DNA of 64,000 nt from Collinsella sp. (GCA_018380195.1 JAGZUC010000003.1:55769-119768); one strand, 5' to 3'. Numbered from the stretch's first letter, positions 8,976 through 11,926 are shown. Notes: a model not told the origin generated them from the sequence alone. Program-made: numbers and translations.

Positions 8976-9076
8976 CCCGACGCTTTGCTCGGTACAAGTT
9001 CCGCACGCAAAGGACAGCACTAAATGTGCTGTCCGTCTTGCGCAGGACTGTTCGCAGTAGCGAGCAAAGCGTCGGG
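8976..9076. repeat. nested palindrome (element B): outer 16 bp inverted repeat CCCGACGCTTTGCTCG/CGAGCAAAGCGTCGGG enclosing GGACAGCAC-TAAAT-GTGCTGTCC
   Basis: Seen directly between the valS stop and the folC start. Its central core is homologous, in inverse orientation, to element A at 11813-11926. Confidence 0.85.
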
Positions 9077-9095
9077 ACGCGTCCCCGAGTAAACC

Positions 9096-11792
9096 TTACG
9101 AGAAGTCAGCAACCTGAGCAGTCAGCGCCGCCAGGATCTCCTTGAGTTCAGCTGCACGGTCCCTCTTCTTCTGGACCACCGCAGGCGCGGCCTTGGCCAC
9201 GAAGCCCTCGTTGGCAAGCGTCTTCTCGCAGCCGGCGAGCTCCTTCTGAGCTGCGGCGATCTCCTTCTCCAGGCGCGCCTTCTCGGCCGAAAGATCGACC
9301 TTGCCCTCGAGCACCACAAAGACCTCGACGCCGCTATCGACCACGGCAATGCTCGCGGCCGGCTTCTCAACGTCCACGCCCATGACCAACGAAGCGGTGT
9401 TCGCCAGCGGCTCAATCGTCGAGCGCAGGCTCTCGAGCTTCTCGATATCCTCGGCACCGGCGCGCACGACCACGTCGAGCTCGGCCTTGGGGCTCAAGCG
9501 ATAGCGCGAACGCGTGGCGCGGGCGGCAGACACGACGGCGCGGCACAGCTCAAACGCGCGCTCGGCGTTCTCGTCGACATACTTGGCGTAGTCGGCGGGC
9601 TCGGGCCACTTGGCAATCATGAGTGCCTCGGCACGGTCGACGTTGCCCTCCGCATCCAGGTCGAGCACGCTCGCCGGCATGTTGTCCCAGATCTCCTCGG
9701 TTACGAACGGCATAAGCGGATGCATCAGGCGAATGGAGGTGTCGAGAACAAAGATCAGGTTGCGCTGAGCCTGCAGACGGCCCTCGCCCTTCAGGCGGGC
9801 CTTGGTGACCTCGACGTACCAGTCGCAAACCTCGTTCCAGAAGAACTGCTGCACGCCGCGGGCCATATCGCCAAAGGTGTAGTTCTCAATACCCTCGGTG
9901 ACCATCTTCACGGCCTTGGCCAGGCGGCTGAACATCCAGGCGTCGGCCGGCGTCTCAACGACGGGCTCGCCGGGCGTGTAGCCCTCCATGTTCATGAGCA
10001 GGAAGCGGCTGGCGTTCCAGATCTTCGTCACAAACGACTTGGCCTGGTCGGTACGCGGGCTGTCGATGAGCTTCTTAGTCTTCTTGTCGATGTTCGCATC
10101 GAACTTGACGTCCTGGTTGTTGGTGCACAGCGTGAGCAGGTTGTAGCGCATGGCGTCGGCGCCGTACATGCCAATGAGGTCCATGGGGTCAACGCCGTTG
10201 CCCTTGGACTTGGACATGCGGCTGCCGTCCTTGGCAAGGATCGTCGGGTAGATGACGACGTCCTTAAACGGCACCTCGTCCAGGAAGTACAGCGAGCTCA
10301 TGACCATGCGGGCGACCCACAGCGCGATGATGTCGCGCGCGGTGACCAGCGCCGTCGTGGGGTGATGTCCCTCGAGCAGCTCCGGCTTTTGCGGCCAGCC
10401 CTGCGTGGCGAAAGTCCACAGCTGCGAGCTGAACCAGGTGTCCAGCACGTTCTCGTCCTGGTGCACGTGATGACCGCCGCACTTGGGGCACACGTCGGTG
10501 TCCTCGGTCAGGGCGTCCTCCCAGCCGCAGTCCTCGCAGTAGAACACGGGGATGCGGTGGCCCCACCACAGCTGGCGGCTGATGCACCAGTCCTTAAGGT
10601 TCTCCATCCAAGTGGTGTAGGTCTGCGTCCAGCGCGCGGGATGGAAGGTGACCTTGCCGGAATTGACGGCGTCGAGCGCCGGCCCCTTGAGTTTGTCGAC
10701 GGCCACAAACCACTGCTCGGACAGCCACGGCTCAAGCGCAGCATCGCAACGGTAGCAGTGCATGACGGAGTGGTCGTGCTCCTCGACGTGATCGAGCAGG
10801 TCATGCTCCTCAAACCACTTAATGACGGCCTCGCGGCACTCCTCGCGAGTCATACCGGTGAACTCGCCGTAGCCCTCGACGACCACCGCGTGCTCGTCAA
10901 AGATGTTGATCTGCGGCAGGCCGTGGGCCTGACCCATGGCGTAGTCGTTGGGGTCGTGGGCCGGGGTGACCTTGACGAAGCCGGAGCCAAAGTTGGCGTC
11001 GACATGCCAATCCTCAAAGATGGGGATCTCGCGGTCGACGATGGGGAGCTTGACGGTCTTGCCCACGAAGGCGGCCTTCTCGGGGTCCTTCGGGGAAACG
11101 GCAACGCCCGTGTCGCCGAGCATGGTCTCGGGGCGCGTGGTGGCGACGACGATGTAGTCCTGGCCGTTGACCGGCTCGGTCAGCGGGTAGCGCAGGTGCC
11201 ACAGGTGGCCCTTCTCATCCTTATACTCGGCCTCGTCGTCCGAGATAGCGGTGGTGCAGTTGGGGCACCAGTTGACGATGCGCTTGCCGCGGTAAATCAG
11301 ACCATCGTGGTACCAGTCGCAGAAGACCTTACGCACGGCCTGGGCGTAATCCTCGTCCATAGTGAAGCGCTCGTTGTCGAAGTCGACGGAGCAGCCCATG
11401 CGCTTGATCTGCTCGACGATGATACCGCCGTACTCGTGGGTCCAATCCCAGCAAGCGTCGACAAACTTGTCGCGACCAATCTCCAGGCGGCTAATGCCCT
11501 CGCTCTTGAGCTTCTTGTCGACCTTGGTCTGCGTGGCGATACCGGCGTGGTCGGTGCCGAGCACCCAGCGCGTGGACTTGCCGCGCATGCGGGCCATACG
11601 GACGATGGCGTCCTGGATGGAGTCGTCGGTGGCATGGCCCATGTGGAGCTTGCCGGTCACGTTGGGAGGCGGAATGGTGACGGTGCAGTCGCCCACGCCC
11701 TCACGGCGCTTGTAGTAACCGCCGTCGAGCCACTTCTGCAGGATCGCCGGCTCGTTGGTCGACGGATCGTAGTTCTTGGGCATTTCTTCCAT
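9096..11792 (-). CDS. valS: valyl-tRNA synthetase
   Basis: Class I HIGH (PNVTGKLHMGHA) and KMSKS motifs, with the ValRS C-terminal coiled coil. Start at MEEMPKNYDP with GGGAGAGA upstream. Confidence 0.92.
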   Translation of the reverse strand: MEEMPKNYDPSTNEPAILQKWLDGGYYKRREGVGDCTVTIPPPNVTGKLHMGHATDDSIQDAIVRMARMRGKSTRWVLGTDHAGIATQTKVDKKLKSEGISRLEIGRDKFVDACWDWTHEYGGIIVEQIKRMGCSVDFDNERFTMDEDYAQAVRKVFCDWYHDGLIYRGKRIVNWCPNCTTAISDDEAEYKDEKGHLWHLRYPLTEPVNGQDYIVVATTRPETMLGDTGVAVSPKDPEKAAFVGKTVKLPIVDREIPIFEDWHVDANFGSGFVKVTPAHDPNDYAMGQAHGLPQINIFDEHAVVVEGYGEFTGMTREECREAVIKWFEEHDLLDHVEEHDHSVMHCYRCDAALEPWLSEQWFVAVDKLKGPALDAVNSGKVTFHPARWTQTYTTWMENLKDWCISRQLWWGHRIPVFYCEDCGWEDALTEDTDVCPKCGGHHVHQDENVLDTWFSSQLWTFATQGWPQKPELLEGHHPTTALVTARDIIALWVARMVMSSLYFLDEVPFKDVVIYPTILAKDGSRMSKSKGNGVDPMDLIGMYGADAMRYNLLTLCTNNQDVKFDANIDKKTKKLIDSPRTDQAKSFVTKIWNASRFLLMNMEGYTPGEPVVETPADAWMFSRLAKAVKMVTEGIENYTFGDMARGVQQFFWNEVCDWYVEVTKARLKGEGRLQAQRNLIFVLDTSIRLMHPLMPFVTEEIWDNMPASVLDLDAEGNVDRAEALMIAKWPEPADYAKYVDENAERAFELCRAVVSAARATRSRYRLSPKAELDVVVRAGAEDIEKLESLRSTIEPLANTASLVMGVDVEKPAASIAVVDSGVEVFVVLEGKVDLSAEKARLEKEIAAAQKELAGCEKTLANEGFVAKAAPAVVQKKRDRAAELKEILAALTAQVADFS

Positions 11793-11812
11793 ATATCTCT
11801 CCCTTGCCCGTC

Positions 11813-11926
11813 GGCGTGTCCGCCTGCTTGGTTTTCGCTCGGTCAGGTCCTGGGCTCGCACGAAGAGCACATTTAGTGCTCTTCGGCTCGTGCGGAATCT
11901 ACGAAAACCAAGCAGGCGGACACGCC
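11813..11926. repeat. nested palindrome (element A) in the valS 5' leader: 25 bp perfect inverted repeat GGCGTGTCCGCCTGCTTGGTTTTCG/CGAAAACCAAGCAGGCGGACACGCC around GAGCAC-ATTTA-GTGCTC
   Basis: Seen directly. Predicts a ~114 nt hairpin in the valS leader transcript ending ~20 nt before the ribosome-binding site. Confidence 0.85.

Follow-up and report, generated by a model that had tools for sequence, protein, structure and literature searches.

The stretch of DNA analysed here, in the following called the window, comprises 64,000 nucleotides on a scaffold of a Collinsella metagenome-assembled genome (MAG; GCA_018380195.1 JAGZUC010000003.1:55769-119768). It carries valS, the gene for valine-tRNA ligase, with a nested palindrome at either end. 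The gene order is tig-clpP-clpX-(A)-valS-(B)-folC-type ligase, with element A 20 nt upstream of the valS ATG and element B 15 nt past the valS stop codon. Both elements are copies of a structured, non-coding DNA repeat restricted to one lineage, the C. aerofaciens group. This family of nested hairpins is apparently undescribed so far; a literature search on Collinsella repeats gave nothing relevant.

Elements A and B at valS

The coordinates of both elements and of their neighbours are collected in Table 1. An initial annotation, made from the sequence alone, had described a perfect 25 bp outer inverted repeat for element A at 11813-11926, and this is what we measure: two arms of 25 nt, 100% complementary, around a 64-nt core. 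The TTTTCG that makes up the inner 6 bp of this arm is common to all type-1 copies (see below). The outer repeat that it had reported for element B exists as well but is larger than stated, not 16 bp at 8976-9076 but 24 nt with 92% complementarity, around a core of 61 nt. That the two cores are homologous and lie in inverted relative orientation was borne out, with 79% identity over 38 nt. A 15-mer, AGCACATTTAGTGCT, is present in both cores and occurs twice in 64 kb against an expectation of 0.03, and none of 100 shuffled sequences contained it twice. The segment CGTGCGGAA is exact in both elements and has one further occurrence in the window. A hidden Markov model (HMM) of the core, run with nhmmer, found no third copy within the window, and A and B are its only two members of the family. 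Folding of both elements, which the initial annotation had proposed, gave -80.6/-83.1 kcal/mol for A (z about -10 against shuffles) and -73.5/-72.7 kcal/mol for B (z about -7.5), and both strands of A and B fold about equally well (-73 to -83 kcal/mol, z -7 to -11).

In element-free relatives an extended -10 sequence, TGTGnTATnCT, is found some 45-55 nt upstream of valS, and the motif is conserved upstream of the gene in L122, L123, L124, L126 and L127. It corresponds to TGTGTTATTCT in the window, which lies upstream of element A, and the element is therefore probably situated inside the valS 5' untranslated region (UTR). A -10 sequence, TGCTATTAT, likewise precedes the copy at leuS. The GTTGACT to the right of several copies was considered as a -35 sequence, and is rather the start of the 5' UTR of leftward genes, for example downstream of the leuS -10. 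A simple sigma-70 scan returned no valS promoter and no promoter-like site in the core or beside A and B. An intrinsic terminator has a G+C-rich stem of about 5-15 bp with a U-tract directly after it. Neither element is built like this: a terminator scan found nothing at element B and merely a 5-bp sub-stem at element A, and a T-run is absent after the outer stem of both. The nearby hairpin of clpX, which does have the canonical build, is included in Table 1 for contrast.

Table 1. Features of the valS region and further repeats in the window. Positions are counted from the first nucleotide of the window and motifs of element B are given in plus-strand coordinates.
Feature	Position	Strand	Remarks
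Element A, full nested palindrome (outer arms and core)	11813-11926	.	in the putative valS 5' UTR
Element A, left outer arm, allele i	11813-11837	.	25 nt, GGCGTGTCCGCCTGCTTGG + TTTTCG
Element A, right outer arm	11902-11926	.	exact reverse complement of left arm
Element A, core, type 1	11838-11901	core+ on window +	antisense to valS
Element A, 5' bulge	11838-11846		CTCGGTCAG
Element A, GTCCTG	11847-11852
Element A, apical stem-loop	11861-11885
Element A, ATTTA loop	11871-11875
Element A, segment 3' of the loop	11889-11897		CGTGCGGAA
Element A, TCTA tail	11898-11901
Spacer between valS ribosome binding site and element A	11793-11812		contains the variable 8 nt
Element B, full nested palindrome	8972-9080	.	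between valS stop and folC-type gene
Element B, outer arm on folC side	8972-8995	.	24 nt, 2 mismatches against partner
Element B, outer arm on valS-stop side	9057-9080	.
Element B, core, type 2	8996-9056	core+ on window -	valS-sense
Element B, TTCCGCACG	8999-9007
Element B, TAAAT loop	9021-9025
Element B, CAGGAC	9043-9048
Element B, complement of bulge	9049-9056		TGTTCGCA
valS, valine-tRNA ligase	9096-11792	-	898 aa, bracketed by A and B
Mur-ligase family gene (folC-type)	7472-8836	-	downstream of element B
Putative extended -10 of valS promoter	11983-11993	-	TGTGTTATTCT, from conserved motif
clpX intrinsic terminator-type hairpin	12021-12056	-	15-bp stem with A/T tracts, ordinary, outside the family
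Conventional palindromic family, five copies	7391-7457, 22754-22819, 45236-45306, 46520-46586, 63518-63588		first copy directly 3' of the folC-type gene
Two tandem hairpins of about 56 nt	2591-2726		arms TCTCAATCTGTAACA...TGTTACAGATCGAGA
Selenocysteine tRNA gene	22605-22697		Rfam tRNA-Sec, 64.6 bits

Spread of the family

The initial annotation had suggested a second repeat family in the window and a search for the core across genomes and genera, and such a family was found. The pattern GCACATTTAGTGC-N(5-20)-GTGCGGAA gave at least 120 loci among genomes representing one GTDB species each, nearly all from Collinsella/Coriobacteriaceae, and a relaxed motif, ACAGTCCTG-N(28-48)-CGTGCGGAAYYT, gave at least 120 matches, nearly all in human gut metagenomes. 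The core HMM added more diverged copies at the same loci, with nhmmer E-values down to 1e-20, and altogether well over 100 genomes of Collinsella and contigs from gut metagenomes contain the core. Further copies, and conservation at valS, on both of which the initial annotation had made its proposal depend, are thus clearly present.

Grouped by their flanks, since chimeric copies link loci when clustered on sequence, 310 instances fall into at least 12 intergenic loci. Besides valS 5' (leader) and valS 3' (between valS and the folC-type gene), these are guaB-leuS (leuS leader), aminotransferase-rplJ (rplJ leader), a position downstream of a glycosyltransferase gene with two neighbouring copies in inverted orientation, and a divergent singleton copy, L296. 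Convergent gene ends harbour the copies at HAD hydrolase/polA, at a metG-like aminoacyl-tRNA synthetase (aaRS) gene and a bile-salt hydrolase (BSH) gene, at a DUF711 gene and an unknown one, and at PcsB-like/murB, and divergent gene starts the copy between the genes for a tRNA U5-methyltransferase and a solute-binding protein. Nearly all sites adjoin at least one gene 3' end. Translation genes are over-represented beside the copies, namely valS (both ends), leuS, the metG-like class I aaRS, rplJ and the tRNA U5-methyltransferase (L003, L013, L017, L094 and the window), and this may mean either that copies persist next to genes that are essential or highly expressed or that there is a functional connection.

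The element is absent at valS in C. tanakaei (L122), L123, L126, Enorma (L124) and Collinsella sp. zg1085 (L125). L123 and L126 represent two lineages with ValS 87-89% identical, and the relatives that lack both elements span 85-89%. In the element-free relatives the spacers between clpX and valS and downstream of valS are shorter and hold ordinary terminators.

The family is not phage-borne. A scan of IMG/VR with the relaxed motif gave 83 hits, about the estimated chance rate, and the only real copy among them (L172) is the chromosomal HAD-polA locus. In Rfam 15 neither the window elements nor ten other family loci reached a gathering score, and a permissive scan returned only a spurious match to a plant microRNA precursor (31.6 bits against a threshold of 100). 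Known Rfam classes (RF01700, T-box, ribosomal-protein leaders, signal recognition particle (SRP) RNA, 6S RNA and ribozymes) were accordingly discarded for want of a covariance-model match. A resemblance to domain IV of SRP RNA (GGUCAGGUCC) is not supported by any Rfam hit either.

Anatomy of the repeat unit

The repeat unit is an asymmetric stem-loop of about 65 nt, or about 75-95 nt together with short conserved inner arms, which read TTTTCG...CGAAAA in type 1 and ..GCTAC...GTAGC/GTATC.. in type 2. It is carried by an outer helix of 24-45 bp. The two sides of this helix form an almost perfect inverted repeat, and each locus and allele has its own sequence in the distal part. On the strand that we call core+, a 5' bulge of 7-10 nt (CTCGGTCAR, TGCGRACA or CTGCTC(GG/T)ACA) is followed by a near-invariant GTCCTG. 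The middle segment is of two types, GCTCGCAC...GGCTCGTGC or GCGCAAGAC...TTTGCGTGC, and the apical stem has 9-10 bp and a loop of ATTTA, ATTAA or ACTG. On the 3' side of the loop come CGTGCGGAA, a tail (TCTA, CTT or CTCGCGA) and the second arm. Bulge, middle segment, apical stem, loop and tail behave as modules found in mosaic combinations (for instance in L172, L324 and L079), and the same loop is shared by the copies at valS, leuS and the metG-like gene. The motifs of the junction, CTCGGTCAR/TGCGRACA-GTCCTG and CGTGCGGAAY, are nearly invariant throughout.

The junction is conserved and the helices around it covary. RNAalifold predicted 31 pairs from 26 diverse copies, and 22 of these pairs show compensatory changes. 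Seven of the nine pairs of the apical stem had changed on both sides and just one of its 234 sequence-pair cells was non-standard, and at the GTCCTG/GCGGAA junction the U-A, C-G and U.G pairs were invariant in 26 of 26 copies. In L127, with a ValS that is 88% identical, the valS 5' site has kept CTCGGTCAAGTCCTG and TCGTGCGGAATCTA but has two other arms, another apical stem and another loop.

The outer arms form Watson-Crick pairs at 96% of 2111 positions. Their mismatches show no G.U bias on either strand (9 G.T against 24 A.C and 38 pyrimidine-pyrimidine), and an attempt to assign the RNA strand from arm wobble pairs came to nothing. Between paralogous copies the homology reaches just 6-14 bp into the arms, and 16-mers from the distal arms had no second locus in the 2.76 Mb searched. 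The notion that the arms are spacer-like copies of foreign DNA was rejected as well: an 18-mer of arm i is present in two viral contigs, in unrelated coding sequences and without any extension, and is attributable to chance.

The core as a separable unit

Identical 64-nt cores are found between unrelated arms at valS 5', rplJ and HAD-polA, and the core of the BSH locus differs from them at 2 positions. Among 48 sampled valS 5' sites, 37 have allele i (as in the window), 8 have allele ii and 3 have a hairpin without any core. This core-less hairpin, GGGGAGGAATGTAGGCCCG-CCA-GGGTCTGCATTCCTCCCC in L054 and L290 and with a slightly different loop in L283, has the arms of allele ii, and in allele ii a module of about 76 nt takes the place of its loop. 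In allele ii the two arms are exact reverse complements of each other, whereas the core-less hairpin has two G.T pairs. All differences between these alleles can be explained by a single insertion in which one arm was re-synthesised on a template, while the reverse needs a deletion and several substitutions, and parsimony thus suggests that the hairpin went from core-less to filled.

The orientation of the core is polymorphic too. By flank alignment it is flipped in L063 compared with L017, L018 and L052 at the metG-like/BSH locus, and in L094 compared with L121, between identical arms of 45 bp; the leuS core of L324 is apparently also flipped. A single orientation was seen at all 48 valS 5' sites, all valS 3' sites and all leuS sites but L324. 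One site is thus polymorphic for presence or absence of the core, and two or three are polymorphic for its orientation. Relative to transcription the orientation is inconsistent: in the leaders of valS, leuS and rplJ the core+ strand is antisense, whereas at the 3' end of valS it is sense.

The arms are specific for locus and allele, and form discrete haplotypes at each well-sampled locus. The first arm of valS 5' is either GGCGTGTCCGCCTGCTTGG or GGGGAGGAATGTAGGCCCGA, that of valS 3' either GCGTCCCGACGC or GCGGTTTGGGGC (a site where element B carries haplotype H1, with H2 as the alternative), and that of the second glycosyltransferase copy either GGTTGCCCGGTGGGGCTTGG or GTCGGTCGGAGGCGGGCGGGC. 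Copies of one haplotype are 97-100% identical in their distal arms and 85-97% in their flanks. Copies of different haplotypes are only 42-69% identical in the distal arms, with flanks that are about equally similar in both comparisons. The replacement of arms at valS 5' looks saltational. Intermediate arm alleles exist at leuS, which makes a gradual compensatory divergence of old alleles, with flanks homogenised by recombination, possible. Recombinants with mismatched arms, one from each haplotype, occur at low frequency (L076, L228, L082, L312, L325 and L048).

Several further observations concern the surroundings of the copies. In the spacer between the valS ribosome binding site and the base of element A, 8 nt vary among genomes (GTCCCGCC, TGCCCGTC, GTCCCATC, ATCCCACC and others), and the two main variants are each found with all three element alleles; either the alleles are very old and there has been recombination near the element, or the change is recurrent. 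Chimeric copies joined inside the core were noted in L025 (around 1030-1200; rplJ on the left and valS 5' on the right), in L257 (glycosyltransferase locus on the left, HAD-polA on the right) and in L048, an isolate genome where two HAD-polA alleles are joined. These represent either real recombination or rearrangement, or misassembly of MAGs at the repeat. In four genomes (L041 at 6258-6460, L058, L077 and L028) the valS 3' element ends exactly after the bulge TGCGGACA, a breakpoint that is identical with three different left-arm alleles. The remainder of the spacer to folC is there a different sequence of about 205 nt, with no Rfam match, which contains a hairpin, CCGCCGTTC-TAAC-GAACGGCGG, and a 14-bp long-range inverted repeat, AAACGCCTCTGATG...CATCAGAGGCGTTT. 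Finally, a short contig, L218, has the right flank of the valS 3' element on both sides, inverted, which makes a larger palindrome; because its coverage is 1.15x it is probably a chimeric assembly.

Other repeats and genes in the window

The window also holds a conventional palindromic family, from which the one at valS is distinct. Its five copies have conserved arms of about 24 bp, AGTTGCGGTGAAATA(G/C)GGACTGTT / AACAGTCC(C/G)TATTTCACCGCAACT, around a variable centre of 14-25 nt. The 8-mer AACAGTCC also occurs in the valS elements, in cores of type 2, and this may be a coincidence. Around valS there are in addition a gene with a selenium-carrier domain and a molybdopterin gene of the xanthine-dehydrogenase type.

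Discussion

The reading that we favour, with a probability of about one half, is that A and B are REP/MITE-like copies of a structured repeat module residing at hairpin tips (REP, repetitive extragenic palindrome; MITE, miniature inverted-repeat transposable element), which is passively transcribed into very stable hairpins in the 5' UTR and at the 3' end of valS. The conserved module would sit at the apex of a long locus-specific inverted repeat and move, or be gene-converted, as a discrete unit; it can flip between identical arms, and would also be the place where alleles, and likewise loci, cross over. Element A would be transcribed in the valS 5' UTR and element B at the valS 3' end, each forming an extremely stable hairpin. 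Most likely these hairpins would serve as orientation-independent structures at transcript ends, such as barriers to 5' and 3' exonucleases or a terminator or insulator between valS and folC, and they probably do not serve as a specific sensor.

Several points weigh against this reading. We found no transposase, target-site duplication or autonomous partner, and mobility is deduced from the distribution alone. No transposase, recombinase or HUH gene is present among the flanking genes examined (about 8-20 kb around each copy), and the elements are not flanked by direct repeats. A search for solo left or right motifs, or for an autonomous element bounded by them, gave an excess of chance matches to coding sequence, and no IS of this kind was seen in the sequences searched. 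Each copy occupies an orthologous position across many species and the same arms are never seen at two loci, which is more like vertical persistence under constraint than active transposition. The near-invariant junction, together with pairing that is strictly kept despite substantial divergence, would be explained just as well by an RNA with a function or by a structure that binds protein, the enrichment of translation genes among the neighbours could hint at a specific function, and the unrelated arm haplotypes between near-identical flanks are left unexplained by the model.

The apex could instead be a structured RNA motif that has its own function, either in cis or as a small RNA. Its junction (bulge-AGUCCUG / GUGCGGAAC, with the invariant U.G) would bind a protein or an RNA between helices that are free to vary, and a tie to translation genes would come from its presence in the leaders of valS, leuS and rplJ. 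The strong covariation of apical and outer helices around invariant junction nucleotides speaks for such a motif, as does the kept junction of L127 where all else has changed, and arms of the same haplotype are better conserved than the intergenic DNA next to them. The core+ strand folds slightly better than its complement (-28.8 against -24.4 and -28.7 against -27.4 kcal/mol), the type-2 middle stem has undergone changes from G.U to A-U, and class I aaRS and other translation genes are enriched as neighbours. An RNA with one functional strand is nevertheless hard to reconcile with a core+ that is antisense in three leaders and sense at the valS 3' end, with cores flipped between genomes at the same locus, and with arm mismatches that lack a G.U bias. 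Perfect helices of 25-45 bp are moreover unusual for functional bacterial RNAs and would be substrates for RNase III, a core-less allele and recombinants with mismatched arms are tolerated, and no promoter-like site exists in or beside the two window copies. We regard this explanation as unlikely.

About as doubtful, in our view, is a structural site at the level of DNA, that is, an extruded cruciform or hairpin that would be bound or cleaved by a structure-specific protein (a recombinase, an HUH-type single-strand DNA enzyme, a nucleoid protein or a topoisomerase) and that possibly works as a flip-flop switch through inversion of the core. Both core orientations do exist between identical 45-bp arms (L094 and L121), and also at the metG-like/BSH locus, but flips are rare, with a single orientation at valS 5', valS 3' and all leuS sites but L324, which is not what a fast phase switch would give. 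For inversion by a recombinase a spacer of about 64 bp is also very short, none of the loci examined has a recombinase or HUH gene linked to it, and the core carries no promoter or other directional signal. The near-perfect arms without an RNA-type wobble bias fit a DNA structure well, and the arms appear to have been copied from each other, allele ii being an exact complement and the core-less allele not. The core is, furthermore, a recombination hot spot between alleles or loci if the joints in L025, L257 and L048 are taken at face value, but some chimeras may be assembly artefacts.

Two more speculative ideas are, taken together, somewhat more improbable. Either we are dealing with a new kind of hairpin-tip element, a non-coding unit of about 75 nt that would enter or leave the single-stranded loop of an existing hairpin with one arm re-synthesised from the other, leaving long, perfect, locus-specific palindromes with a flippable apex, or the junction is the handle of a structure-specific protein and the arms carry locus- or allele-specific information. 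Both would have to explain how a whole pair of arms can be replaced between similar flanks.

The initial annotation had also considered A and B as paired leader and 3' UTR structures or as a regulatory RNA pair affecting valS and folC. As regards position this was right, A lying between the putative -10 and the ribosome binding site and B after the stop codon, but a joint role, for instance through long-range pairing of the complementary cores in one transcript, is highly improbable. In a single valS transcript the cores would be about 79% complementary over 38 nt, and the bracket is conserved in many Collinsella genomes; the local hairpins (-73 to -83 kcal/mol) would, however, out-compete such pairing. 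The regulatory pair is unsupported since the same module stands at no fewer than ten other loci beside unrelated genes, A is antisense and B sense, cores are flipped elsewhere, the three valS 5' alleles are interchangeable, assort independently of the 3' alleles and include a core-less one, and relatives with 85-89% identical ValS have neither element. Together with the dedicated pair, chance similarity of two GC-rich palindromes or terminators is effectively excluded, as only the high G+C of the region speaks for it, and the count of the shared 15-mer, the nhmmer E-values and the hundreds of homologous copies against it.

Comparison with known elements

MITEs have conserved terminal inverted repeats, a direct target-site duplication and a related autonomous insertion sequence (IS). 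In the Collinsella family the outer termini differ at every locus, and conserved inverted repeats are internal only (TTTTCG/CGAAAA and GCTAC/GTAGC). An inverton consists of inverted repeats around a promoter-bearing segment that is found in both orientations, together with a site-specific recombinase. Both orientations do occur between genomes at two loci, and apparently in L324, but the core has no promoter-like site and no linked recombinase. A T-box-like leader is specific for aaRS and amino-acid genes, lies in sense orientation and has a specifier and an antiterminator. This candidate was dropped, as there is no T-box match, the module is also found beside rplJ, polA, murB and the glycosyltransferase gene, and its loop does not change between valS, leuS and the metG-like gene.

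The REP, BIME and REPIN elements with their RAYT transposases (PMC3116915, PMC3337134, PMC3333891, PMC2817692) resemble the family in many ways. They are short non-coding intergenic palindromes, with hairpin doublets of about 100 nt, that persist vertically at orthologous sites, lie at gene ends and between convergent genes, keep their pairing by compensatory change and are recombination hot spots. A REPIN, however, repeats the whole hairpin including the arms, whereas in the Collinsella copies the shared part is limited to the module at the apex and 6-14 bp of the inner arm, and a distal part of 10-35 bp is unique to each locus or allele. REPINs also number tens to hundreds per genome, compared with an apparently low number here, about a dozen loci; with 2 copies in 64 kb and at least 12 loci overall, the family is not a repeat of whole units in the REP/REPIN sense. 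REPINs go with a RAYT, a Y1 HUH transposase encoded by one gene copy in the genome; among the flanking genes examined here we identified none, nor did we recognise a GTAG-type 5' tetranucleotide.

IS1397, ISKpn1 and IS110-family elements insert in REP hairpins (PMC1525189, PMC12288879), so that the element lies inside a palindrome and the host halves become flanking inverted repeats, much like the valS 5' alleles. The corresponding relationship between an empty and a filled host hairpin was found at one locus only, valS 5'. IS1397 and its like are, however, full insertion sequences with a transposase and target a repeated REP, whereas the Collinsella insert is a non-coding piece of about 75 nt, its host hairpins are all different and its arms become perfect complements.

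The CREE (Correia elements) of Neisseria and the ERIC/IRU of enterobacteria (PMC2649163, PMC2229807, PMC10969869) are about 100-150 bp long, form long hairpins when co-transcribed and are found in either orientation in 5' and 3' UTRs. They alter mRNA stability via RNase III or RNase E (PMC2649163, PMC2229807, PMC10969869), which is the role that we infer for the Collinsella hairpins. Their terminal inverted repeats are conserved, and CREE, with its variable interior, also duplicates a TA target and has known promoter and IHF sites. The design is reversed in the Collinsella family, with a conserved interior and variable termini, and no target-site duplication or promoter was detected. Pneumococcal BOX elements (PMC3049150) are modular in the same way as the mosaics of bulge, middle segment, stem, loop and tail, but their modules are linear (boxA-B-C) and not embedded in long locus-specific inverted repeats. 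The Collinsella-1 RNA motif (RF01700; PMC2864571) is, like our family, a candidate structured RNA, reported from C. aerofaciens and human gut metagenomes. It gave no match to A or B even at E-values up to 10 and no gathering-level match in the ten other loci, and the Collinsella family is thus a different motif.

By analogy, the family would work most like REPIN/BIME, ERIC and Correia elements, and its design, with a conserved apex and long, variable, perfect arms, is the inverse of theirs. The arm haplotypes and the step that makes the arms perfect are its most unusual and least explained features.

Significance

Collinsella is an abundant genus of the human gut with very little molecular genetics, and the repeat family is a compact and easily recognised marker of the C. 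aerofaciens group. There is also a practical side, as the cores are points of recombination or misassembly in MAGs and the arm haplotypes could aid strain typing. The family is a natural system for studying how long palindromes arise, stay perfect and are exchanged in a bacterial chromosome, how very stable UTR hairpins influence essential genes such as valS, leuS and rplJ, and whether structural epistasis in the stem keeps haplotypes apart in a recombining population.

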